Positions 29,415-64,000 of a DNA stretch of 64,000 nt are shown piece after piece (the first letter of the stretch is position 1; each line of letters begins with the position of its first letter). The DNA lies in the NCBI RefSeq assembly GCF_039654945.1, contig NW_027361692.1:2728001-2792000 (forward strand), given 5' to 3'. Source of the stretch: Dendrobates tinctorius. Lineage: Eukaryota. Below the pieces are notes generated by a model, which did not search any database, was not told the DNA's origin, and saw only the letters and a program-made list of their open reading frames with translations. A program made the translations under genes and the position numbers.

Positions 29415-29933
29415 TGTCATGCGGGGCTTAGTTCAACTAAGGCTGAAATACCCGGGGCCCCTGTGATGTCCCTTTAACTAGGGGAAACCCTGTCTGACCC
29501 TCAACCCAGGGTTTTTGCTGATGATGACCCTCCACCCTCCACCCAGTGAGGAGACACACCACCAAAGCCCCCACACAAATAATGACAGACAGGGAGAACT
29601 TAAACTGCACTGCGCCGCACACACAGAGGAATATACAGTAATGTGAACAGGGCACAACTAAACACAAATATGGGAAGGAGAAAGGATAACAACGGCTCAT
29701 ACGCCACCAGATACGAATCTCTCTCTCTTCAACACCTCCACTCCAGACAGGAACCATAGGCCAGCATGACTATTTAAAGACCATGGGCGTGACTAACCAT
29801 CCAACCTGGTCTCCAGCAAGATTAACCCCCGAGAGCCTGAAGATCAAGCCGGCGCCACTGAGGCTATAGTGGATGGAGGTGGAACTACCTCTGCCTGCCG
29901 GACGCTGTGGTGTGAACAGCGTCCGACATGACA
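29415..29933 (-). repeat. 3' LTR (519 bp; two internal deletions of ~50 and ~37 bp relative to the 5' LTR)
   Basis: Direct repeat of 34130-34735 with about 7 substitutions by eye. Confidence 0.92.
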
Positions 29934-32900
29934 TTACCCCGTCTTCTACGAGGGACCCCCGGACCCTCAAGACTCATAGGACCCGGCTTGTCCGGATGAC
30001 GATGGTGAAAGGAACTGACCAGCCGATTCGCATGTATGTCTGAGGCTGGAACCCAAGACCTCTCCTCCGGACCATACCCCCGCCAGTGCACCAAATACTG
30101 AAGAGTATGGCGTACTACTTGAGAGTCCACTACCTTGGCAACCTCAAACTCTAAATCGCCCTCCACCATGACTGGAGGTGGCATCGGCGTCGTGTCCACC
30201 AAGCCTACCACCTTTTTCATTAAAGCCCTGTGAAACACCTTGTGTATCTTGTACACCGCAGGAAGTTCCAACCGATAAGCCACTGGGTTAATGATGGCAG
30301 AAATCCTAAAAGGCCCAATAAACCTTGGACCCAGTTTTAAAGATGGAATTTTGAGTTTTATGTTCTTCGTAGCTAACCACACCCATTCACCCACACACAG
30401 GTCCGGACCTGGCACGCGTCTACTGTCAGCCACCCGTTTGTACCTAGCACTCATGCTCAACAAGCGCTGTTTCACCCTCCTCCAGACCGATGACAATTGG
30501 GCTCCTAGCTGATCCTCCTCCGGGACACCCCCCGAGTCAACCTGACGTAAGGTACAAAACTGAGGATGTTGACCGTACACACAAAAGAATGGAGACTCTC
30601 CCGATGACTCTTGGCGGTGATTATTTAATGCGAATTCGGCCAGAGGAAGGAAAGTAGACCACTCCTCCTGGTTGTCGGACACAAAGCATCGTAAATACTG
30701 TTCTAGATTTTGGTTCATGCGCTCAGTTTGTCCATTAGACTGTGGATGAAACGCCGATGAATGTGACAACTTGATCTCCAAACGTGAGCAAAACGCTTTC
30801 CAAAACCTCGCCACAAATTGTGTACCCCTATCAGATACTATGTCCGACGGAACTCCGTGGAGTCTGACCACCTCCTTCACAAATACCTGGACCAACGTCT
30901 TTGCATTGAGCAATGAAGACAATGCCACAAAATGCGCCATCTTTGAAAAACGGTCAACCACCACCAGGATGACCGTGTTCCCCGCCGAGGCTGGCAAGTC
31001 AGTGATGAAATCCACGGAGATTTCTGTCCATGGCCTATTGGGTACCCCCAGAGGCTGTAGCGTGCCAGCAGGACAGGTTCGGGGTGACTTAGCCCTAGCG
31101 CACGTGATGCAAGCTGCCACGTATGAGACCACGTCCTGCCGAATTTTGGGCCACCAGAAACGACGCGATACCAGCTCTAAGGTGCCCTTCACCCCTGGAT
31201 GACCAGCCAGTACCGAGTCGTGGTGTTGCTTCAACACCTTAAGCCGAAGATGCAGGGGTACAAATGATTTGTTGGCGGGAAGTCCTGGCAGTACCTCCTC
31301 TTGGGCCTCAGCAATCTCCGCCTCTACCTCCGTCGTGAGAGCCGAGACCACTACCCCTTCCTGGAGGATGGGTACAGGCTCTTCCGAGGTTCTCCCCCCG
31401 GAAAACACCTAGACAAAGCATCCGCCTTGGTGTTTTTAGCCCCGGGACGGTAAGTCACAAGAAAATTGAAACGAGTAAAAAACAATGCCCAGCGGGCCTG
31501 CCTAGGAGACAGACGCTTGGCCGACTCCAGACATAGCAGATTCTTATGGTCGGTGATGACTGTGACCTGGTGAGCCGCCCCCTCCAAGAAGTGTCGCAAT
31601 TCCTCAAAAGCCAATTTGATGGCCAACAACTCCCTGTTGCCGATATCATAATTCCGTTCGGCCGGCGACAGCTTCTTGGAGAAGTAGGCGCATGGATGCA
31701 TCTCGCTCAAGGACGAGCCTTGAGACAGTACTGCCCCCACTCCCACCTCCGACGCATCAACCTCCACCACAAAAGGTTTAGACACGTCTGGTTGCACCAG
31801 AATGGGGGCTGAAGCAAAACTATTCTTCAGATGCTCAAATGGACGTATAGCCACTTCAGGCCAGCTCGCCAGATCGGCACCTTTTTTGTCATGTCCGTGA
31901 GCGGTTTGGCGATAGTCGAAAAGTGTTTTATAAATTTCCTATAATAATTTGCAAACCCAAGGAACCGCTGGAGTGCTTTCAGACTCTCCGGCCTCTCCCA
32001 TTGCAGCACCGCTTGCACCTTAGTGGTGTCCATTTTAAACCCGGCTGCGGACACAATATATCCCAAAAAGGGCAACTCCTGGACAAAAAATAAACATTTT
32101 TCCAGCTTAGTATAGAGCTGGTTCTCCCGGAGCAACTGTAATACCTGCCTGACATGCTCCAAATGAGTGTCCCGATCGCTAGAATAAATGAGGATATCAT
32201 CCAGGTATACAATCACAAATCTCCCCAGGACATGAGCAAATACATCATTAATAAAATGTTGGAAAACGGCAGGCGCGGTGGTCAACCCAAACGGCATAAC
32301 CAGATTCTCAAAATGACCCTCAGGAGTGTTAAACGCCGTCTTCCACTCATCCCCCTGAAGGACCCTTATGAGGTTATACGCCCCCCCTGAGGTCCAGCTT
32401 GGAAAACCATTTCGCCCCCGCTACCTGGTTGAACAAATCCGGGATCAACGGCATTGGGTAGGGATCACGGATAGTAATCTGGTTTAACTCTCGGAAATCC
32501 AGACACGGGCGTAACCCCCCATCTTTCTTCTTAATGAAGAAAAACCCCGCGGCTACAGGCGAGGACGAAGGCCGGATGTGTCCTTTGCTCAGACTCTCCA
32601 TGATGTAGTCTTTCAGAGCTTGTCTCTCAGGACCAGAAATATTAAACATCCTGGCCTTAGGTAATTTGGCCCCGTGTTTAACCTAATCGCACAGTCATAG
32701 GCTCTATGTGGAGGCAGTTCTGAGCAACCCTTCTCAGAGAAAACATCCGCGAAATCCTGCAAAGCCTCCGGCAGGCTGGGCGTCATGGTGGACACACATG
32801 TGGCCAAGGAATTGTCTTGGCAGAAACCACTCCATTGTACTATGTCCTGAGTTTTCCAATCAATTACCGGGTTGTGCCTGGGCAACCATGGAAAACCCAG

Positions 32901-33236
32901 GACCATTTGTGCTGGGAGATTACGGAGGACCCTACATGTAACCGACTCAGAATGTAGGACCCCAATGTAGAGTTTCACCTCTGCCACAAACTCCATAATC
33001 TCCCCTTGAGGGAGGGGAACAGCATTAATGGTAACCACCTGTATGGAGTGAGGAAGTCTTTCGATCTTAAACCCGGCGGTGTGTGCAAACTCCTCATCTA
33101 TGAGATTGGTGGCGGAACCGCTATCCACAAACACTGATATTGGTAGCTCTCTGCCCGCGATAATAACCTTGGCAGGGAGCATACATTGAGATACCATCAT
33201 GGAGGATATGCATACGCTCAGTTGGGTCTCCTCCAT
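29885..33236 (-). pseudogene. pol: Gypsy pol (PR-RT-RH-IN-chromodomain), several frameshifts
   Basis: FVDSGS protease; YLDD RT; VEVDAS RNase H; HHCC plus VDFIT/SDRG/E integrase; C-terminal chromodomain FEVAKVVD..YLVHWRGYGPEERSW. Confidence 0.92.
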
Positions 33237-33247
33237 ACCCTCTGAGC

Positions 33248-34099
33248 TTAACAGTTTTCCGCCGGTGTGACCCTCTTAGGTAGTACTGGGCAAACGTTAA
33301 CATAATGACCTCTTTTACCACAGTAGAAACATGCTCCGGGCTTCCGGAATCCCGTAGCGCGACGCTTAACCTGTGCCACGCCAGCAATCTGCATAGGTTC
33401 TGGGGACTCATCTACTTCAACCACACTTGAACCTCTGCTTTCCCCCAGAGGTAGCGTCTCCTGTGCCCCCTGATGAAAACGGCGATCAATACGTATCACC
33501 AAACTCATGGCAGACTCCAACGATGCCGGAGTCTCATACATCAGGAGGGCTTGTTTAACCTTCCCTGATACCCCATGAATAAACTGGCTCCGCAGTGCTG
33601 GGTCATTCCACTGTGTGTCTATGGCCCAACGGCGAAATTCCGAACAATAGTCCTCTGCCAAGCGCTCCCCCTGGCGGAGGGTGCGGATTTTAGATTCCGC
33701 TAGAGCCAGTCGGTCAGGATCATCGAAAATGAGCCCGAGGGCAGAAAAAACATTATCGACAGAATGAAATGTAGCAGAGTCAGCTGGTAAGGAAAATGCC
33801 CATGCTTGGGGGTCACCACTCAGTAATGACAACACCAGCCCTACCCGCTGGGCCTCATTACCTGAGGAGATAGGGCGCATGCGGAAGTATAACTTGCAGG
33901 CCTCCTGAAATACGACAAATTTGCTGCGATCCCCTGAAAATCGTTCTGGCAGCGGAAACTTCGGCTCTGCACCGATACCTGCAGATGCCGTTTGCACCTT
34001 CGCTACTACCAGGCCCTGCTGCTGAACTGCCCCTTTCAACTCGGAGACTTGTAAGGACAGCGCCGCCAACTGGCGGGTTATGGAATCTAATGGATCCAT
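33248..34099 (-). CDS. gag: Gypsy Gag (283 aa) with CCHC zinc knuckle
   Basis: LPERFSGDR, LRQG, CFYCGKRGHYVNVC; ends at GGAAAAC, a possible -1 slippery site, just before the stop. Confidence 0.88.
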   Translation of the reverse strand: MDPLDSITRQLAALSLQVSELKGAVQQQGLVVAKVQTASAGIGAEPKFPLPERFSGDRSKFVVFQEACKLYFRMRPISSGNEAQRVGLVLSLLSGDPQAWAFSLPADSATFHSVDNVFSALGLIFDDPDRLALAESKIRTLRQGERLAEDYCSEFRRWAIDTQWNDPALRSQFIHGVSGKVKQALLMYETPASLESAMSLVIRIDRRFHQGAQETLPLGESRGSSVVEVDESPEPMQIAGVAQVKRRATGFRKPGACFYCGKRGHYVNVCPVLPKRVTPAENC

Positions 34100-34129
34100 G
34101 GACTCCTGAAAAATGTGGGCCGATTATAA

Positions 34130-35621: not shown

Positions 35622-37830
35622 CTAAATCATCCCAGTCAGATGTCTGTCCAGCCTCTGTTTGAAGACTTCCATTGAAGGAGAACTCACCACTTCTCGTGGC
35701 AGCCTGTTCCACTCATTGATCACTCTAACTGTCAAAAAGTTTTTTCTAATATCTAATCTGTGTCTCCTCCCATTCAGTTTCATCCCATTGCTTCTAGTCT
35801 TTCCTTGTGCAAATGAGAATAAAGTTGATCCTTCTACAATGTGACAGCCCTTTAGATATTTGTAGACAGCTATTAAGTCTCCTCTCAGTCTTCTCTTTTG
35901 CAAACTAAACATTCCCAAATCCTGCAACCTTTCCTCATAAGACAGGGTATCCAGACCGGTCACCATTCTGGTCGCTCTTTTCTGAACTTGCTCCAGTTTG
36001 TTGATGTCTTTTTTAAAATGTGGTGCCCAAAACTGGACACAATATTCCAGATGAGGTCTGACCAAAGAGGAGTAGAGGGAAATAATGACTTCACGTGATC
36101 TAGACTGTATGCTTCTGTTAATACATCCTAGAATTGCATTTGCCTTTTTTGCTGCTGCATCACACTGTTGACTCATATTCAGTCTGTGATCTATTAGTAT
36201 ACCCAAGTCTTTTTCACATGTGCTGTCACTTAGCCCTATTCCTCCCATTCTATATTTGCTTTTTTCATTTTTATTGCCCAGATGTAGTACTTTGCATTTC
36301 TCCCTGTTAAAAACCATTCTGTTAGTTGCTGCCCACTTCTCCAGTTTATTTAAATCTTTTTGAATCCTCTCTCTCTCTTCTCTAGTATTAGCTATCCCTC
36401 CTAGCTTTGTGTCATCAGCAAATTTAATCAGTTTACCCTCAATTCCTTCATCTAAATCGTTGATAAAGATGTTGAACAATACAGGGCCCAGGACAGAGCC
36501 TGGACCCTGGAGACTTGAATTCATTTAGGTTAGCTAAGTGTTTCCTCACTATCTTTCTGTTTATAGATATCCTGGATTCTTCTATTCCCTTAATAGGACA
36601 GTGAATAACAGTTGATGTTACATTTCCTTTCTGAGAGAAAACAGATGCAAAATAGGAATTTAAAAGTTCAGTCTTCTCAACATCCTGTCTTACCATTTCA
36701 TTATTTTCATCCTGTAAAAATCCTATAGCATCTTTGACTTTTCTTTTACTTTTGACATATCCCCAAAATCCTTTATTATTTCTTTTGACATCTCTTGCAA
36801 GCCTCAATTCATTTTCAACTTTAGCTAATCTGATTTGTGCCCTGCAGGTTCTGCAGACAGCATTATATTCTTCTTTAGATATGCCTCCCTCTTTCCATTT
36901 TATAAACATTTTTTTCTTCCTTTTTAGCATGTGCTTAAGTTCTGTGTTCATCCATCCTGGTTTCCTTAAATGCTTCCTATTCTTCCCTCTTTTCGGAATT
37001 GTTAACAACTGTGCTTTGAGAATTTCATTTTTCAAGATTTCCCATCCTTCCTGGACATTTTTGTCTTTAAGGATATCCAGCCATTGGATCCCTCCAATTC
37101 TCTTTCTGAATCCCTTAATATCTGCATTTCTGAAATCTAACCTTGACGTCTGAGTCTTCACAGGTCTTCCGCCTCTAGTTATCCAAAATTCTAAAATAGC
37201 ATGGTCGCTACATCCTAGGGTCCCAGCCACTTTTACCTCCTCAACCATTTCCTCCCTGTTTATAAGGATTAGATCCAAGGTAGCAGTTCCCCTTGTTTTC
37301 TCCCTTACCTTTTGGAAGATAAAGTTGTCAGCAAGAGAGGATAAGAATTTCCTTAACCTGTTAGTTTTGCCTGAGAGAGATTCCCAGCAAATGTCTGAAT
37401 AGTTGAAATCTCCCATGACAACTATGTCATATTTTTTGGAGAACTTGGCCATTTAATGCATAAAGAGTTCATCCATATCCTCAGCTTGCACAGGCGGCCT
37501 GTAGTAAATGCCTACAATGGTGTCCTTTCCATTGTTCTGTCCTTGTATTCTTACCCAAACAGTTTCCACAGAACTCCCAGTCTCTGAAGCTTCAATCTCT
37601 GTGCAGATATACACGTTTCTAACATACAATGCGACACCCCCTCCTCGTTTATCAAGTCTGTTTCTTGCAAATAAGTTGTATCCTTCTAGTCTTGTATTCC
37701 AATCATGTGTGTTGTCCCACCAAGTTTCAGTGATTCCAATGACATCATATTTCTTTTCCTGTGTTAGTAGTTCCAATTCTCCTTGTTTGTTGCCCATGCT
37801 TTGTGCATTAGTATAGAAACAATTTAGTTT
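35622..37830 (-). pseudogene. CR1 ORF2 (APE endonuclease + partial RT)
   Basis: IGITETW, RGGGVALY, GIYYRPP, MGDFN, SDH; RT KFADD. In-frame stop at 37453. A junction near 36505 joins KSPG to GSVLGP, removing the N-terminal RT motifs. Confidence 0.88.
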
Positions 37831-46393: not shown

Positions 46394-49300
46394 CTATGTG
46401 TCATCAGGGGAAGGTCGGACAAAATCCTTGGAAACCCATGCATGGTTCATTTTAATGAAGGTTAGATCATCCACATTTTGGGTTGACAGACGGGTCCTTT
46501 TTTCTGTCAGGATTGATCCAGCTGCACTGAAGACTCTTTCCGATAGCACACTTGCAGCTGGGCAAGCGAGCTCCTGTAAGGCATATTGTGCCAGGTCAGG
46601 CCAGGTGTCCAGTTTAGCGGCCCAATAGTCAAAGGGGAATGACCTGTGCGGGAGAACATCGATATTGGAGGAAACGTTGTTTGTAACCATAGTTGACAAC
46701 TGCTATCTCCTGTCACTTTCCATCGATGCATTATTACCAGTTGTGTGAGCGGTACTTGAAAAATCAGTCCACAACATTGTCATGAAACCCCTGTCTCCAA
46801 CGCCACTTCTGCTGTGTGCACCACGAACACCTCTGCCAAGCTGCCCCCGGCCCGTACGGCTCGTGTTAGAACCATCACCACTGCTGTGTGCTGGGAATGC
46901 CTCAACCAACCGGTTTACCAGAGTTGCTTGTTTATTAGCCAATATTAGGTCAAGGTTCTCGTGTGGCATGATGTTTTGTAATTTGCCTTTATAGCGTGGA
47001 TCCAGGATGCTGGCCAACCAGCAGTCGTCATCGCTCATCATTTTGGCAATGCGGGGTCCCTTTTTAGGATCTGCAAGGCATAACCTGACATGTGGGCCAA
47101 TGTTCCTGGTGTCAATGATGCACTGCGAGTGCTGGTTGAAGGAGCACTTTCTGGCAAATCCACATCCCTCCAGTCACGCACAAACCCTGTACCAGACCTT
47201 GCCACGCCAACATTTTCACTTGCCCCACGAGATGCATCCTCCTCCCCTAAGTAATCATCCCCATCATCATCCTCCTCCTCCTCTTCTTCCTCCACCTCGT
47301 CCAGGAGAGGTCCCTGAGCAGACAATGGCTGAATGTCATCAGGGATTCCCTCCACCTCTTCCTCCTCGTCAACATTGGCTGCAGACGCCTGCTCCTTAAG
47401 GTGCGTCAAAGTTTGCATGAGCAGACGCATAAGTGGGATGCTCATGCTTAGGATGACGTCGTCTGCGCTTACCAGCCGTGTGCATTCCTCAAAACACTGA
47501 AGGACTTTACAGAGGTCTTTCAGCTTCGACCACTGCACACCTGTCAACTCCATGTCTGCTCTCAAAGTGCCTGGCCGTGTATCCTCCCACAAATGCATTA
47601 TGGCCTGCCTCTGTTTGCACAGCCGCTTAACCATGTGCAGGGTGGAGTTCCACCTTGTTGCAATGTCGATAATGAGGCGGTGGTTGGGAAGGTGGAGCAA
47701 TCGCTGCAGCTTCTGCATACGAATGGAGTGTACAGGCGACCGGCGGATGTGCGCGCACAGTCTTCGCACCTTCTGGAGCAGGGCTGTTAACTCCGGATAA
47801 TTGCTGAGGAAGCACTGCACCACCAGGTTCAAGGTGTGAGCCAAGCAAGGTATGTGGCTGAGTTTTGAAAGGGCTATGGCTGCCACAAAATTACGGCCGT
47901 TATCACTAACTACCTTGCCTGCCCCAAGATGTATACTGCCCAGCCATGACTCAGTTTGTCGCTGAAAGTACTCGGCAAGCACCTTCGCGGTATGTCTGTC
48001 GCCCAAACACATCTTCTGCAACACAGCCTGCTGACGTTTTCCACTAGCTGCTCGATAGGGGGACACCTCGTGTGCAACAGTGGCAGCTGCAGATGGAGTG
48101 CTCGTACGACTGCGCTCTGTGGACGAGCTTTCGCTTCTGGAGGAGGAGGAGGAGGGTTGAACGCCTACAGCCAACTGTTTCCTATACCGTGGGCTAGGCA
48201 GCACTGTCCCACCACCGCTGTCCCCTGTGGACCCTACATCCACCGCATTAACCCAGTGCGCAGTGATGGACACGAAACAGCCCTTGCCATGCCAACTGGA
48301 CCATGCATCTGTTGTGAGGTGCACCTTTCCACTCACTGACTGCTTGAGTGCATGGACAATGCGGTCTTTCACATGATGGTGGAGGGCTGGGATGGCTTTG
48401 CGAGAGAAGAAGTGGCGACTGGGTAGGTCATAGCGTGGTACTGCATAGGCCATGAGTTCGCGGAAAGCTGCGCTTTCCACCAACCGATAGTGCATCATCT
48501 CTAATGAGATTAGTTTGGCAATGTGGGCGTTCAAACCCAGTGTACGCGGATGAGAAACTGAGTACTTTCTTGACCTACTCATAATCTCTGGGAGGGTGAG
48601 CTGGACTTGAGAGCTGCATATGGTGGAACTAGCGGTGGACAGGGCGGACTGAGAGAGGGTTGATGATGGTGATGGAGTTGGTGTTCTTTCTGATGGCCTA
48701 GATTCAGTCTTTCGTTGATATAACAGTGGGATTCCCTGACTGCTTTGGCCTTTCAACGACACCTCAACATTTGCTGCTGTGCTAACCAGTGGGCTTACAG
48801 TGGGGGGAAACAATGTAGTGTTGCTGACTACCTTCTTTGTGATCAGTTGCACATGTGGTACTTGAGGTTTGGTGTTGTGTCCACGCTTGCAAGTGCATGC
48901 TGGTTAAATGTCTAAGCATGCAACTGGTATTCAAATTTTTCCGATTTTTCCCTCGGCTAAAGGTCTTTGCGCACTTCTTACAGATAACCTTGGCCTGATC
49001 ATGAGGATTTTGTTCAAAAAAGTGCCACACTGCACTTTTCCCACTTTGGAAGACATTTTGCGGCCTAGCACGCTGTGCTATTTTGACCGTCTGGACAAGC
49101 TGTCCACCAACTCTTTTGATTTTTGGAACCTGTCTTTGGAGTGCTCCGGGCCTGCCAGATAACAGCTGTTGTGATGTCGATGTCTGCTGTGGATGCTCCT
49201 CCTCCTCATCTGAGGTATTGGAAGCAGCACCCTCTTCCCCCAATGGATGCCAATCTGGGTCAACAACTGGGTCATCCATCACCTCCTCTTCAATGTCATG

Positions 49301-49936
49301 TGCACCTTCCTCTGTGTCACCGTGTATGGTGGTATAGTATGCGGGAAGGGGCACCTGAGTCTCATCAGGGTCAGAATCTGACTCATTGCACTGCGAGGAC
49401 AATGTAGTGCTCTGACTGAATGTACCAGCAGAATCATCTGTCAGTGGCTGTGCATCAGTGCACTCCATGTCAGATTCATCTTGGCCTGGGTAATTCACCA
49501 TTTCACTTGATAACCCAGGCATGGTATGTGAAAACAGCTCCATGGAGTAATCAGTTGTATGGCCTGTGTCATCCTTCAATCTTGGTTGGGGTGAAGGACA
49601 CAAGGAAAGGTGTGGTTCATGAACATGACCCTCCAATGACGACTCAGTGCTTTTATTTTTTACAACTTCAGAAGAGGAGGCGATAGAGCTGGAGGCTGAG
49701 TCAGCAATGTAAGCCAAAACTGTTTCCTGATGCTCTGGCTTTAAAAGCGGTTTGCCAACTTCTAGAAAACTAAGCCTTCGAGGCCTTGTGGAGCCAGACG
49801 ATGACGCAGGCTCAACACCTCCTGCATTCGTTCCTATTTTGCTTTTGCCACTACCATCAGTTCCACCACCAACACCATCATTACCAGCTGGCAACCCCCG
49901 CCCAATTACACGGCCTCTTCCACCAGCCTTCCTCAT
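46394..49936 (-). pseudogene. hAT transposase (ZBED-like: BED finger, DDE core, hATC dimerization domain), 2 frameshifts + 1 stop
   Basis: SAVWHFF...CKKC...MLRHLTSMH (BED); LTTDAWS, VSDNG, CLAH, TRWNST; YW..LA..LACPAASVLSERVFS. Spread over ORFs 48782-49936, 47038-48852, 46703-47041 and 46394-46699. Confidence 0.92.
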
Positions 49937-50002
49937 TTTTGGTAAAAATGTACACAAAATCCCACAAACTATATAGTAATGTAAAACAAGGTACAAGGTG
50001 TA

Positions 50003-51655
50003 TATAGGACAGGGGAGACGTAGAATTTCTGAACACACTTGTGGACACTGTTGGATTGTGTGAGGCCCAGTTAATATCACACCGCTATGTCACAGGCTCA
50101 ATGTCGCAGGTGTGAAAAATGTCACTATAGGACAGGGGAGATGTAGAATTTCTGAACACACTTGTGGACACTGTTGTGTGAGGCCCAGTTAATATCACAC
50201 CGCTATGTCACAGGCTCAATGTCGCAGGTGTGAAAAATGTCACTATAGGACAGGGGAGATTTAGAATTTCTGAACACACTTGTGGACACTGTTGGATTGT
50301 GTGAGGCCCAGTTAATATCACACCGCTATGTCACAGGCTCAATGTTGCAGGTGTGAAAAATGTCACTATAGGACAGGGGAGATGTAGAATTTCTGAACAC
50401 ACTTGTGGACACTGTTGTGTGAGGCCCAGTTAATACCACACCGCTATGTCACAGGCTCAATGTCACAGGTGTGAAAAATGTCACTATAGGACAGGGGAGA
50501 TGTAGAATTTCTGAACACACTTGTGGACACTGTTGGATTGTGTGAGGCCCAGTTAATATCACACCGCTATGTCACAGGCTCAATGTCGTAGGTGTGAAAA
50601 ATGTCACTATAGGACAGGGGAGATGTAGAATTTCTGAACACACTTGTGGACACTGTTGGATTGTGTGAGGCCCAGTTAATATCACACCGCTATGTCACAG
50701 GCTCAATGTCGCAGGTGTGAAAAATGTCACTATAGGACAGGGGAGATGTAGAATTTCTGAACACACTTGTGGACACTGTTGTGTGAAGCCCAGTTAATAT
50801 CACACTGCTATGTCACAGGCTCAATGTCGCAGGTGTGAAAAATGTCACTATAGGACAGGGGAGATGTAGAATTTCTGAACACACTTGTGGACACTGTTGT
50901 GTGAGGCCCAGTTAATATCACACCGCTATGTCACAGGCTCAATGTCGTAGGTGTGAAAAATGTCACTATAGGACAGGGGAGATGTAGAATTTCTGAACAC
51001 ACTTGTGGACACTGTTGTGTGAGGCCCAGTTAATATCACACCGCTATGTCACAGGCTCAATGTCGCAGGTGTGAAAAATGTCACTATAGGACAGGGGAGA
51101 TGTAGAATTTCTGAACACACTTGTGGACACTGTTGTGTGAGGCCCAGTTAATATCACACCGCTATGTCACAGGCTCAATGTCGCAGGTGTGAAAAATGTC
51201 ACTATAGGACAGGGGAGATGTAGAATTTCTGAACACACTTGTGGACACTGTTGTGTGAGGCCCAGTTAATATCACACCGCTATGTCACAGGCTCAATGTC
51301 GTAGGTGTGAAAAATGTCACTATAGGTCAGGGGAGATGTAGAATTTCTGAACACACTTGTGGACACTGTTGGATTGTGTGAGGCCCAGTTAATATCACAC
51401 CGCTATGTCACAGGCTCAATGTTGCAGGTGTGAAAAATGACACTATAGGACAGGGGAGATTTAGAATTTCTGAACACACTTGTGGACACTGTTGTGTGAG
51501 GCCCAGTTAATATCACACCGCTATGTCACAGGCTCAATGTCGCAGGTGTGAAAAATGTCACTATAGGACAGGGGAGATGTAGAATTTCTGAACACACTTG
51601 TGGACACTGTTGGATTGTGTGAGGCCCAGTTAATATCACACCGCTATGTCACAGG
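50003..51655. repeat. 118/123-bp tandem array (~14 units)
   Basis: Unit AGGCCCAGTTAATATCACACC...; two lengths differing by a 5-bp indel (50063, 50181, 50304...). Confidence 0.95.
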
Positions 51656-51730
51656 CAGAAATTGACTAGTGTATGACAAACTACAAGGTGTATATAGAAT
51701 TGGGCAGAATAGGAATCTCCCTAGAGTGTA

Positions 51731-52630
51731 GGTCTGTAAGAACGGAACATGTCCTCAACTTATCCTTACAGAGTGACACACAGATAGCTTCACTGTGGCC
51801 CTGATAACAGCTGTTACACGGTACTGAGAGAGGAGCGCGCACGTACACCGCTGTCCGGTGTCCGTAAAATTGTCAAGCTCCGTGTTTTTTAAGTATACGG
51901 ACTGACACACGCTGTCTCTCTATAGTTTTGAATGTGATCAAACAGCAAATATACTTAACTGTTTGAAAAGCAGACAAAACTAGAAGGTGGAGGTCTGTAA
52001 GAACGGAACATGTCCTCGACTTATTCTTACAGAGTGACACACAGATAGCTTCGCTGTGGCCGTGATAACAGCCATTACACGGTACTGAGAGAGGAGAGTG
52101 CACGTACACCGCTGTCCGGTGTCCGTAAAATTGTCAAGCTCCGTGTTTTTTAAGTATACGGACTGACACACGCTGTCTCTCTATAGTTTTGAATGTGATC
52201 AAACAGCAAATATACTTAACTGTTTGAAAAGCAGACAAAACTAGAAGGTGGAGGTCTGTAAGAACGGAACATGTCCTCGACTTATTCTTACAGAGTCACA
52301 CACAGATAGCTTCACTGTGGCCGTGATAACAGCCGTTACACGGTACTGAGAGAGGAGCGTGCACGTACACCGCTGTCCGGTGTCCGTAAAATTGTCAAGC
52401 TCCGTGTTTTTTAAGTATACGGACTGACACACGCTGTCTCTCTATAGTTTTGAATGTGATCAAACAGCAAATATACTTAACTGTTTGAAAAGCAGACAAA
52501 ACTAGAAGGTGGAGGTCTGTAAGAACGGAACATGTCCTCGACTTATTCTTACAGAGTCACACACAGATATCTTCACTGTGGCCATGATAACAGCCGTTAC
52601 ACGGTACTGTGTGAGGAGCGTACACCGCTG
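51731..52630. repeat. 261-bp tandem repeat (~3.4 units)
   Basis: GGTCTGTAAGAACGGAACATGTCC at 51731, 51992, 52253 and 52514. Confidence 0.93.
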
Positions 52631-52954
52631 TATGGTGTGAAAAAATGCACGCTCAGTACCTCACCAGGACAAAAAAAAAAAATTTGGATTGCTTTTAAAA
52701 AAGCAGTTTGCAGAGCAGTGGGAAAACAGCAATGCAGCTATCAGGAAGCCTTATAAGGCAGCCTAACAACCAACACAGCTGATCCAGCAAAATATAGCCT
52801 CCACTTGCACTGCACACACAGTGACTGGTGTGTTGCACAGGCAAAATCGCTAGCAGCAGAAGCAGTTTTTGGTGTCTTCTTCCCTGCCTAATGCTCTCCC
52901 TACAGAATCAGCCGCAGCAGCAGCTGCTCTCCCTATTCTGATATCAGCATGAGT

Positions 52955-60383: not shown

Positions 60384-60980
60384 TGTAACAATTGTACTCA
60401 CTCAGCTGCGTAGGAGGAAACAGGAGGCACATTCTCTTCACCGTCCATGTGAGTTTATTTGCTCCATAAACCATCAAATCCACAACAAATCCACAACAAA
60501 AGAGGTTAACAACAGTCTTTACATCAGGCAGACACTGCATCAATGTCCATAGGATTCTCCTTCTCTGAACACAGACCACTCTGTAGTGTCCCACCTGGAC
60601 ACATGGAAATCTGTGCACACTGCCAGACTCCCAAACACTAACTGCCCAGTGCTAAACACACCTCAATTACATAACTGGTAACCACACCCACAGGTGAGGT
60701 ATGGATCACATGGGCTGTCACATGGTTATGACCTCACTGGAGGTCCTGAAACTTACAACCACACAGGCTTCATTAGGTATTCAGACACACACCCCTTGGG
60801 TGGGTATGTAGGTGACTGGACCCACCCATATCTCCAAGTCACCTGGAAGCCTTCCAATGTATAGCAAAAACCCTCAGCAGTAGATCTGCTGAGCAAAACA
60901 TGCCCAGGATTCCATCACAGGGCCACCCACTTCTGCGATACACACTGCCCATCAATGACATGACCAGTCATCATGCCACA
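60384..60980 (-). repeat. Putative 3' LTR (597 bp) of an FXR1-carrying retroelement
   Basis: The minus strand begins TGTGGC immediately after the purine tract AGAAGGGGGAAA (60994-60983), contains AATAAA (~60458) and ends TTACA. Confidence 0.6.
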
Positions 60981-61294
60981 TATTTCCCCCTTCTGTTTAA
61001 ACCTGTGGGGTTGAACACTTGTACTAAACCGAGGGCATCGAGACAGGGCACCCATGTCACCTTGCCCTACAAGTCAAAAAGACCATCTCAGTCTGTTTTG
61101 GACGTCATTCAGCATCACATCTTTGTTAGGCCACCCCCACCTCCAGCGGTCAGTATGTCGGCCTTGGGCTTAAGCCTTGGAGTCACCATCTGCCTGTGTC
61201 ACCAGACCCTTTTTAGTCAACCTACTTTCCAAATGTGCCTTTTCACATGACCTTTCTTTCCATGGCCGCTTCCCACGGTTGTTGTGGTCATGAG

Positions 61295-62623
61295 TAGGGA
61301 TGAGCGAGTATACTCATTAGGATTCGGTACTCACTGAGTAATGCAGTACTCGCGGGACTTGAATCCTGGCTAGTAAATTTCACTACTCTCCTCTCAATAT
61401 TTGGCACAGCCTGCATAGTCCCCGCACAGCCCAGCACAGTCCCACACAGCCCAGCACAGTCCCCGCACAGCCTGGCACAGTCCTGCACAGCCTGGCACAG
61501 TCCCGCACAGCCCGGCACAGTCCCGCACAGCCCGGCACAGTCCTGCACAGCCCAGCACAGTCCCGCACAGCGCCGCACAGTCCCCACACAGTCTCCGCAC
61601 AGCCCGGCACAGTCCCGCACAGCCGGCACAGTCCCCGCACAGCCCTGCACAGTCCCGCACAGTTCCTGCACAGTCCCTGCACATCCCGGCACAGTCCCGC
61701 ACAGCTGGCTCAGTCCCCGCACAGCCCAGTACAGTCCCGCACAGACCGGCACAGAGCCCACACAGTCCCTGCACAGCCCAGCACAGTCCCCACACAGTCC
61801 AGCACAGTCCCGCACAGCCCAGCACAGTCCCCACACAGCCCGGCACAGTCCTGCACAGCCTGGCACAGTCCCGCACAGCCCGGCACAGTCCCGCACAGCC
61901 CGTCACAGTCCCTGCACAGCCCAGCACAGTCTCCGCACAGTCCGGCACAGTCCCGCACAGCCGGCACAGTCCCCGCACAGCCCTGCACAGTCCCGCACAG
62001 TTCCTGCACAGTCCCTGCACATCCCGGCACAGTCCTGCACAGCTGGCTCAGTCCCCGCACAGCCCAGTACAGTCCCGCACAGCCCGGCACAGAGCCCACA
62101 CAGTCCCCGTACAGCCCAGCACAGTCCCCGCACAGCTCAGCATAGTCCCACACAGCCCAGCACAGTCCACCTACAGCCCAACACAGTCCCACACAGCCCA
62201 GCACAGTCCCCGCACAGTCCCGCACAGGCCGGCACAGTCCCCGCACAGCCCAGCACAGTCCCGCACAGCCCGGCACAGTCCACGCACAGCCCAGCACAGT
62301 CCTGCACAGCCCGGCACAGTCCCTGAACAGTCCTCGCACAGCCCAGCAAAGTCCCGCACAACCCGGCACAGTCCCCGCAAAGCCTAGCACAGTTCCGCAC
62401 AGCCCGGCACAGTCCTCACACAGTCCCGACACAGCCCAGCACAGTCCCGCACAGCCCAGCACAGTCCCGCACAGGCCAGCACAGCTCCGCACACACATAG
62501 CCCAATAATCGCATTTCCCATAGACTTACATTGGACTCGCTACTCGTAACGAGTACCCAAGTATTTGGAGCTACTCATAATGAGTACAGCGAGTCTGAGT
62601 ATTTCACTACTCGCTCATCCCTA
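61295..62623. mobile_element. Non-autonomous hAT element filled with a minisatellite
   Basis: TIR TAGGGATGAGCGAGTA / TACTCGCTCATCCCTA; 8-bp TSD GTCATGAG. Confidence 0.9.
61404..62490. repeat. 10/11-bp GC-rich minisatellite (GCACAGTCCC / GCACAGCCCG)
   Basis: About 100 degenerate units; explains the spurious Cys/Gly/Ala-rich ORFs. Confidence 0.95.
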
Positions 62624-62639
62624 GTCATGAGTCCACCAT

Positions 62640-63879
62640 CCATTCGAGCCTACTGGCTAATCTGAGTCTGACCCTTTGTCACTACGTCCACTACCTGGTC
62701 TCTTGCTTAAGCTACTGAGCCCTGAGTTAACAGAGGAATCACCACCTTTAACCCCCTTTGCTTCAGACCACGTACTGCCAGTCTCAAGAGAAACCCCTCA
62801 TCTCTCCATGTCCTGGGCTGGAAGCAGTCACCATCTTCTTTCCAACTCCTGTAGCTGTATATTAATCTGCATTTTTTCCCAGATCAGCTGCTCTACCTCT
62901 TGTAGGTACGTCAGCCGATATTCCAGGAGCATGCGGAGGTTCCTAATGTTTTCCACTGAGCCAACAACAACAAAAGGAACCATGTCATCTTCCCCAGCTA
63001 TCTGGACTTAAGTCACCAGTGGAATCTTCACTCTCACCACACCAGATCTATTCACACGCTCTTGCATCACCTTTCCAAGTCTTCCAATGACTTTCCCCAC
63101 CAGATTTCTGGATACCGGAATGATGTCTTCCACAAAGCGATTTTGAGCTTCCCTTGGAAGCTCCAGATGTCGAGTGGATTCCTTATTCCTTAACATGATC
63201 ATCTGTTTCATGTGGAGGCATTGTAGTTGCATATCCTTCAGGACAGCCACCCGCTTCACTGTGACTTCACTAGTCGACAGTACGACCTACTGCTGAGTCT
63301 CAGGCGCCCAGTGCACACTACATGCTTTGACCACCTTTTTAAAGGCCTCATGCACATCCTTAGTGGCACGCGGTTCTCGCATGTCTTCTCGCATGCACTT
63401 GAAACCAGAAGTCTTACCTTCTTGAACATACTGTTGGACCACCTCGTCCTGAGAGTCAGCACAGTTTTCCAAGATATCGATCTCCCTTGTGTGGCCGTCT
63501 GCATGGCAATTTCCCTGCTGCATTCTTTCCCTGGGGAGGCCCCTTCTTTGGTCAGCCTCTCCAGCTCACTCTCCTTCATTGCGATCAGATCGGGACAGTG
63601 CAACAGTTTGATTTCCCAGTCATCCGTGGATTTCTGGAGCTGGGCATTAGTCTCCTCTATTTTGAGCTCTCGGAGAACTTTATCTCTCTCCTCTGCCAGG
63701 CAGTGATGCTCATCCTCTCTCTGGAGAAGCTCCAGCTCATGCTTCTCTTGGGCCTCTCTGAGCACCTCCATATCTTTCATTATGGCCTTATTCATAGTTT
63801 GACACTCTGACAGGTGACCTCTTAACTCAGAGACTTCCTTCTCCAGCTCATCCACTCTGTGCTCAGCTGCTTGTCTTAA
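62640..63879 (-). pseudogene. FXR1-like: Intronless FXR1/FMR1-family-derived ORF (KH0, KH2, NES, part of C-core) fused to an N-terminal coiled coil; in-frame stops and one frameshift
   Basis: One frame reads FKC..EDMRE...HEAFKKVVKAC..PETQQ*VVLSTSEVTVKRVAVLKDM..RNKESTRHLE..FVEDIIPVSRNLVGKVIGRLGKVMQE.V..SGVVRVKI...MVPFVVVG..ENIRNLRMLLEYRLTYLQEVEQL..EKMQINIQLQEL, colinear with FXR1 as I recall it. Confidence 0.85.
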
Positions 63880-64000
63880 GCCCCCGTCACACACGGCGAT
63901 CTCACTAGCGAGATCGCTGCTGAGTCACAAGTTTTGTGATGCAACAGCAATCTCACCAGCGAGATCGCTGTGTGTGACACCTATCAGCGACCGGCCCCCC
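63880..64000. mobile_element. Start of a Harbinger-type MITE (truncated by window end)
   Basis: GCCCCCGTCACACAC...AGCGAGATCGCT motifs similar to 22323-22717. Confidence 0.6.

Follow-up and report, generated by a model that had tools for sequence, protein, structure and literature searches.

The question raised by this locus is how coding sequence resembling the Fragile-X-family gene FXR1 came to stand beside a long terminal repeat (LTR). The locus lies at the right end of a 64,000-nucleotide stretch of Dendrobates tinctorius DNA (contig NW_027361692.1, positions 2,728,001 to 2,792,000), hereafter the window. An earlier note, made from the sequence alone, had proposed that a non-autonomous or cargo-bearing LTR family had captured an FXR1 complementary DNA and fused it to a coiled coil. 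This was confirmed: the family is multi-copy, its members are flanked by LTRs, and in young copies, chosen for long open reading frames (ORFs), the ORF extends over 870-923 codons. The copy in the window is a decayed non-autonomous Ty3/gypsy (Gmr1-like) LTR element with a single ORF, and its parts are listed in Table 1.

The unit with TG...CA ends and AATAAA, noticed earlier behind a polypurine tract on the minus strand, is present, and the inverted ends and target duplication of the hAT-type miniature inverted-repeat transposable element (MITE) between cargo and LTR were found. This MITE is 1329 bp long and contains an internal minisatellite of about 10 bp; we take it to be hAT-type from the rule on 8-bp duplications. 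It also holds that no reverse transcriptase (RT), integrase or env is encoded between cargo and LTR. Between them lies a spacer of about 300 bp; in relatives it weakly resembles the C-terminal tail of Gmr1 Pol, 2 of 11 compared sequences giving a match at E 0.001. In intact copies the ORF tail reads via the purine tract into the LTR. A 5' LTR and a primer site had been expected past position 64000. Both were detected, the LTR as a remnant, 3.4-4.4 kb past the window end in L011, the DNA continuing from the window, of which 20 kb were searched. The window 3' LTR is 88.5-93.9% identical to three 5' LTR remnant pieces, and the first 72 bases of the 5' LTR of this copy were not found in these 20 kb. 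The FXR1-like segment is therefore neither single copy nor without a 5' LTR, and the 3' unit is not an unrelated solo LTR, there being many copies and a matching 5' LTR remnant.

Decay of the window copy is extensive. It is interrupted by at least four later inserts, a third stop (62828-62830) adds to the two in Table 1, and a frameshift near 63520-63560 parts the coiled coil from KH0. The coiled-coil ORF said to precede the FXR1-like segment stood as to the coiled coil itself; its supposed first codons (63880-63924) belong to the second insert, and the coiled coil resumes at L011:549. Frames for RT and integrase inside locus L013, considered as a part of the cargo element, were rejected because they lie on the opposite strand, and they are read as a nested element.

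Table 1. Parts of the window copy, its continuation past the window end (L011), and loci of the myosin-9 lineage
Feature	Position	Strand	Remarks
3' LTR	60384..60980	-	597 bp, TG...CA ends, AATAAA at 60459
Polypurine tract	60981..61000	-	similar to the tract of autonomous Gmr1-like elements
3' end of ORF, degenerate tail like Gmr1 Pol end	60981..61294	-	weak match, E 0.001
Later hAT-type MITE insert	61295..62623		16-bp terminal inverted repeats, 8-bp target duplication
Low-complexity tail of FXR1, exons 12-14, diverged and with stops	62624..62842	-	
FXR1 KH2 and coiled coil CC2, exons 9-12	62843..63136	-	stop at 63008-63010
FXR1 KH0 and CC1, exons 5-7, then junction without KH1	63137..63415	-	stop at 63287-63289
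Element coiled coil and linker	63416..63879	-	
Later hairpin-rich insert	63880..64000, to L011:548		~670 bp, splits the coiled coil
Protease-like remnant, beyond the window	L011:1314-1688		
Primer site	~L011:3434		
5' LTR pieces	L011:3435-3691, 4322-4407		
Myosin-9 lineage, L168 and L169	G000:C309:2302547-2303857, C22:22635913-22637220		and about 100 further places

The cargo was compared with the host gene. The minus-strand frames at 62843-63415 match the KH0 and KH domains of FMRP and the FXR C-core; in Pfam the window cargo gave KH_9 (E 5.6e-5) and FXMRP1_C_core (E 0.004), and it matched the FMR1 structure 2qnd with E 3.6e-11. The window DNA aligned to the spliced host exons with a score of 466, the best of 30 shuffles reaching 136. 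Host exons 5, 6, 7, 9, 10, 11 and 12 follow each other end to end and intronless at 62-79% identity, and exon 8, which encodes KH1, is almost wholly gone. The host FXR1 gene lies on another contig and has introns; the annotated poison-frog protein P0081 is identical to what its exons encode. Since the cargo aligns to the host exons without introns, it derives from a spliced messenger RNA (mRNA). Of the claim that about 250 codons are colinear with FXR1 and free of introns, the second part stands, whereas the colinearity is broken by the missing exon 8 and Tudor domains.

In the main cargo lineage the Tudor domains and KH1 are absent, and KH0, KH2, the C-core and both FXR1 coiled coils, CC1 and CC2 (exons 5-12), are retained. 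The KH2 loop reads GRLG in the window and GKNG in host FXR1. The donor paralogue was judged, from hit lists and a by-eye comparison to FMR1 and FXR2 exons rather than from a tree, to be FXR1. Loss of KH1 would fit about equally well with skipping of exon 8, as in the natural isoform P0009, and with a deletion inside the element. With a DNA identity of 65-70%, the junctions are too diverged for the fusion points to be placed exactly. Synonymous and nonsynonymous divergence between cargo and host (dS 0.8-1.0, dN 0.3) indicates that the capture is old and that change since then has been fast, though under constraint. When the genome was searched with KH1, four of the seven matches were element copies. 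The coiled coil that belongs to the element gave weak matches in the Atlas, under the recognition mark; of the 12 representatives that it matched, 11 have this same framework of the element and the remaining one is a generic coil.

Copy numbers were estimated as floors, by counting exact patterns in the genome; control patterns gave 0. A KH2 18-mer, present in 40 of the 62 copies compared, occurs 815 times, and a 20-mer specific to the young group 667 times. The searches with the LTR and the cargo returned 4015 and 3910 first-look candidates, which are not copy numbers; 40 were scored from each, and the 3' LTR proved repetitive, with 47 matches from its 40. By eye, 132 of the 150 best protein matches had no stop, in a ranking that favours intact copies. 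The same spacer, purine tract and LTR follow the FXR1-like segment at most of 29 other loci.

Twenty copies, mostly chosen for long frames, were fetched. Sixteen of them measure 4.7-5.1 kb and carry one ORF of 870-923 codons between LTRs that are 96.9-99.7% identical. LTR pairs were 90.8-99.7% identical in 18 of the 20; one further pair was 96.3% identical, one locus is a tandem, and two of the fetched loci are one insertion filed twice. An exact 4-bp target duplication was seen in 13 of 17 young copies scored. In the older groups, paired LTRs are 90-95% identical and fall into several types. There are at least five subfamilies, the youngest of which inserted recently.

Some loci showed further peculiarities. 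L130 (G000:C23:777500-787499) consists of two complete tandem units with a shared middle LTR, 99.8% identical. In L113 the ORF opens with short, degenerate peptide repeats in which Q, K, G, V and T are frequent; their number varies, and such variation explains the range of ORF lengths. After the 5' LTR of L113-L132 two primer-site variants occur within one young subfamily, the second of which may match another transfer RNA (tRNA) or be a drifted form.

Annotated proteins of the same layout were found in Dendrobates tinctorius, Ranitomeya imitator and R. variabilis; among the 120 matches listed none was a chimera from another genus, which is weak evidence of range. Of four contig sets compared with a young copy, two, from a second organism, covered 28-29 of its 30 bins with a likeness of at least 90%. 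A further set of annotated chimeras (P0129-P0137 and P0038; 690-881 amino acids, mutually 96-99.6% identical) points to another young intact lineage. These proteins combine two different protease-like domains in tandem with a mosaic of subfamily parts, and these mosaic parts suggest recombination between lineages.

Which kind of element served as the vector can be read from the rest of the ORF. Ahead of the spliced FXR1 piece it encodes a long coiled coil and degenerate protease-like domains, of which there are one or two; an RNase-H tail follows. The protease-like domains matched an autonomous Gmr1-like family in all 11 cargo sequences (E 1e-3 to 7e-13), and no match to gag, integrase or RT was obtained in the six cargo elements and five proteins compared. 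Retroviral gag, pol or env Pfam matches were likewise absent from ten chimeric proteins or frames. The cargo element is not of the endogenous retrovirus (ERV) type; its remnants match a gypsy polyprotein. In the young group the protease motif is DSE in place of DSG, and other groups are nearer the norm.

The autonomous family (L137-L140) is a young Gmr1-like gypsy family with 460-bp LTRs in pairs of 93-99%; L138 has a frame of 1465 codons. These four elements share the primer site with the cargo elements and encode SCAN-gag, protease, integrase, RT and RNase H, in this order, together with a zinc knuckle. Integrase before RT is the hallmark of Gmr1-like elements, and L138 has this order. The primer site, which in the cargo element presumably pairs with tRNA-Ala, and the purine tract are alike in both kinds of element. 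A 17-base primer-site pattern occurs 1173 times in the genome; when a tRNA gene was sought by the primer pattern, none was found in four loci and the pattern picked out primer sites of the other family. SCAN domains occur in Gmr1-like elements according to passages of PMC3424704 and PMC4131045. At the level of sequence, the protease remnant and the common cis signals show the cargo element to be a non-autonomous Gmr1 derivative.

Whether the captured protein mattered to the element was assessed by pairwise comparison of natural copies (179 codons, 62 copies in five groups, after three duplicates and three unclustered copies had been dropped). The net between-group ratio of nonsynonymous to synonymous change (dN/dS) was 0.39 (0.29-0.53) or 0.46 (0.34-0.64), intervals that are optimistic because the group pairs are not independent, and all ten pairs fell within 0.30-0.55. 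Within two large old groups the ratio was 1.0-1.2, as expected for neutral decay after insertion. The other frames gave 1.2-2.7 in four of five cases; the mirror frame, with which third positions are shared, gave 0.51. In the KH part, transversions at 0-fold versus 4-fold sites gave 0.33 (0.17-0.63) and a non-CpG measure 0.40 (0.26-0.64), whereas the ORF tail gave 1.00 and 0.99 by these two CpG-avoiding measures. KH2 (0.40) and KH0 (0.52) are similarly constrained. Stops in the KH region were found in none of 21 young copies, which were chosen for open frames, and in 25 of 41 older ones. Between subfamilies purifying selection acts on the FXR1 part; the tail evolves neutrally, and the decay of old copies is neutral too. 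The suggestion that the protein had evolved under selection in the element before this copy decayed is borne out by between-group ratios of 0.33-0.46 next to a tail at 1.0.

An AlphaFold model of the annotated chimera P0001 had a mean predicted local distance difference test (pLDDT) of 56.7, with KH0 and KH2 at about 90. It contains a 120-residue helix (287-408), a tentative beta domain at the protease remnant and much disorder, and its top fold match was FMRP. According to the relevant part of PMC10635158, FXR1 dimers form by heteromeric CC1-CC2 pairing, which changes of N202 or V361 break. Among ten annotated chimeras N202 is retained in nine and V361, as V or I, in all ten; both glycines of the KH2 loop are retained in nine. 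A complex model of cargo CC1 on host FXR1 CC2 scored 0.69, and the best of three controls 0.00; the mark for this score was attained by 51 of 78 solved pairs and 2 of 108 mismatched pairs. The runs agreed in at least 90% of contacts and partner pLDDT was at least 81. Since the model used a close relative in place of the true partner, this result speaks for likeness and not for binding.

The FXR1 piece is not the only cargo. In a sister lineage the place of FXR1 between this coiled coil and tail is taken, in frame, by the C-terminal tail of myosin-9 (Myosin_tail_1 at E 9e-75; the best-matching structure was that of myosin-9). It has an internal deletion of about 20 residues, and copies are annotated 'myosin-9-like'. 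A search for this lineage gave 101 matches from 96 scored candidates, and a 20-mer gave a floor of 221 copies. In one of the two copies fetched both LTRs are present (94.7% identical), together with a 4-bp duplication and the primer site of the FXR1 elements. The single myosin-9 pair compared showed no clear constraint (0.106 vs 0.125). Another lineage is represented by five broken copies (L163-L167) in which KH1 is still present and the loops of both KH domains are degenerate; within L163 a KH1-less element seems to be nested in the KH1-keeping one. Compared for signs of a single capture, the KH1-keeping and KH1-less lineages have 11 of 34 changes in common, with 7.7 expected (P 0.13).

As to what selection acts on, we favour, with a probability of roughly one half, that the cargo is kept as an adaptor acting on the element's own RNA. 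The LTR would drive transcription of the element, and autonomous Gmr1-like elements would do the copying in trans, as the common primer site and purine tract lead us to infer. The chimeric protein made from this RNA would oligomerise through the added coiled coil; KH2 would hold RNA, and the CC1 and CC2 helices would pair with host FXR1, FMR1 or FXR2. The adaptor would thereby place the RNA of the element in FXR granules, where it might be protected, translated or met by helper particles. An adaptor is favoured because a benefit in cis would best explain selection on the protein of a non-autonomous element. The wider proposal, a gag-less, cargo-swapping LTR vector whose FXR1 fragment docks on host Fragile-X proteins as an adaptor or in counter-defence, which is kept by selection on the element itself and is still spreading, is tentative and, taken as a whole, rather doubtful.

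Several observations weigh against the adaptor. The myosin-9 lineage, with at least 221 copies, has no KH domain, and its spread shows that the FXR1 piece is not required for spreading. The cargo is far from the host (in ten annotated chimeras, 43-61% identity in KH2 and 27-60% in CC1), and the first glycine of the KH2 loop is lost in the group C copies examined. A point mutation in KH1 disrupts the FXR1 network, as reported in part of PMC10635158, and the cargo KH1 is gone. The passing complex model indicates likeness only, and CC1 of the cargo with CC2 of the host was the sole pairing seen. When columns with CpG in any copy were dropped, 79 codons remained and the ratio rose to 0.77 (0.48-1.45). 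For the protease-like domains the ratios are 0.52 (0.26-1.20) and 0.57 (0.28-1.31), with intervals that span 1, as does the interval for the coiled coil (0.22-2.46). No helper with a similar LTR was found in the one autonomous family compared, which has no DNA similarity to the cargo elements and so shows the type of helper, not the helper itself. Finally, action of the adaptor in cis is our inference.

An alternative that we consider unlikely is that the fragment serves as a decoy: dimerising, and lacking Tudor, KH1 and most of RGG, it would poison host FXR1/FMR1 complexes, and a weaker germline silencing or translational block would help all related elements in the cell. Its domain content is indeed like that of a dominant-negative fragment, the modelled pairing with host CC2 (0.69) fits, and five broken KH1-keeping copies stand against at least 815 KH1-less ones. 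In addition, PMC5454977 describes the orthologue in flies as an interaction partner of Aubergine and Piwi in the silencing of transposons. However, a benefit shared in trans would be expected to be poorly retained on a non-autonomous element, KH2 is as constrained as KH0, and the literature searches gave no frog data tying FXR1 to transposon silencing.

That cargo identity is minor, and that an open soluble ORF merely stabilises the RNA by escape from nonsense-mediated decay, appears improbable. This explanation would account for the swappable cargo, FXR1 or myosin-9, for the frames kept open at both junctions of both cargos and through the purine tract, and for the one myosin-9 pair without clear constraint. 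It is difficult to reconcile with a single ORF in which the KH part is at 0.33-0.40 and the tail at 1.0, as avoidance of stops alone is insufficient for this.

We regard it as very unlikely that one or a few master copies are maintained by host selection for their use to the frog, perhaps as a restriction factor or a regulator of germline RNA, and have shed the others as a by-product. In Dendrobates and Ranitomeya several copies do carry gene annotations, and for crocodilian ERV-captured mRNAs under purifying selection the part of PMC4299795 consulted leaves exaptation open. Against a master copy, there are at least five lineages with different LTRs and mosaic domain content, and the identity of the annotated frog proteins to the query, only 40-49%, is like that of diverged subfamilies and not of orthologues. 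An ordinary FXR1 processed pseudogene adjoining an unrelated solo LTR, which the stops, frameshift and inserts of the window copy might have suggested, is refuted by hundreds of LTR-flanked copies with target duplications.

Capture of genes by LTR elements is already known; what differs here is the scale, the gag-less gypsy vector and the in-frame fusion, as well as the RNA-binding cargo, the cargo exchange and the recent activity. The ORF1 protein of LINE-1 (long interspersed nuclear element 1) has a layout of coiled coil and RNA-binding domain. It may offer a functional parallel, in acting on its own RNA, although sequence and element class are unrelated. Maize Bs1 is a plant copia-like element of low copy number with an enzyme-fragment cargo. 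As cited in a passage of PMC5131818, it too is a non-autonomous LTR element in which captured host exons form a hybrid protein. The LTR-mediated retroposition described in that part of PMC5131818 likewise has spliced host mRNA replacing internal genes in a mobile non-autonomous unit. Those retrocopies are young, with one or a few insertion sites, whereas the frog element has at least 815 copies in several subfamilies and adds a long in-frame chimeric ORF and purifying selection; the words 'Frog' and 'Xenopus' do not occur in the text of PMC5131818.

In CrocERV29 (KIT-ligand) and CrocERV31 (nectin3), as given in part of PMC4299795, captured mRNA was replicated and is under purifying selection. 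These are retroviruses with 9 and 6 copies and a separate ORF for an extracellular protein; the frog element, in contrast, is a gag-less gypsy derivative present in hundreds of young copies, and its RNA-binding cargo is fused in frame. With Gmr1-like elements, as far as described in the passages of PMC4131045 and PMC3424704, it has in common the protease family, primer site, purine tract, TG...CA ends, 4-bp AT-rich target and read-through of the ORF into the 3' LTR. It differs from them in having no SCAN/gag, integrase or RT, and no DNA similarity to the one family compared. No description of the element was found in the literature searched; supplements, Repbase and Dfam lay outside that search, and the repeat libraries may have it catalogued. 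The main text of a dendrobatid genome paper contains neither fragile nor FXR nor FMR1.

Animal LTR gene capture has so far been represented mostly by few-copy cases. Here a captured RNA-binding gene is under protein-level selection across subfamilies, in hundreds of insertions that encode no capsid or polymerase. Such a system makes it testable how a non-autonomous element is selected to keep a protein, and whether vertebrate Fragile-X proteins have any part in germline transposon control. There is a consequence for annotation as well: copies appear under the names 'fragile X messenger ribonucleoprotein 1 homolog', 'restin homolog' and 'myosin-9-like', and in these frogs they could be mistaken for expansions of gene families or distort read counts for FXR1.

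The window and its vicinity contain other elements. A separate, broken Ty3/gypsy element at 29888-34123 (minus strand) has gag (Retrotrans_gag E 6e-9), RT, RNase H and, after these, integrase. Frames labelled by eye as hAT-like transposase lie on the minus strand at 47041-50089 and at L012:3612-6719, the latter open over 1036 codons; for 47041-48903 no Pfam match was obtained at E 0.001. Also labelled by eye, and on the minus strand, are a frame like the endonuclease/RT of a CR1-type LINE (35625-37452) and one like a Tc1 transposase (13551-14639). Tandem arrays with units of 118/123 bp and 261 bp occupy 50003-52640.

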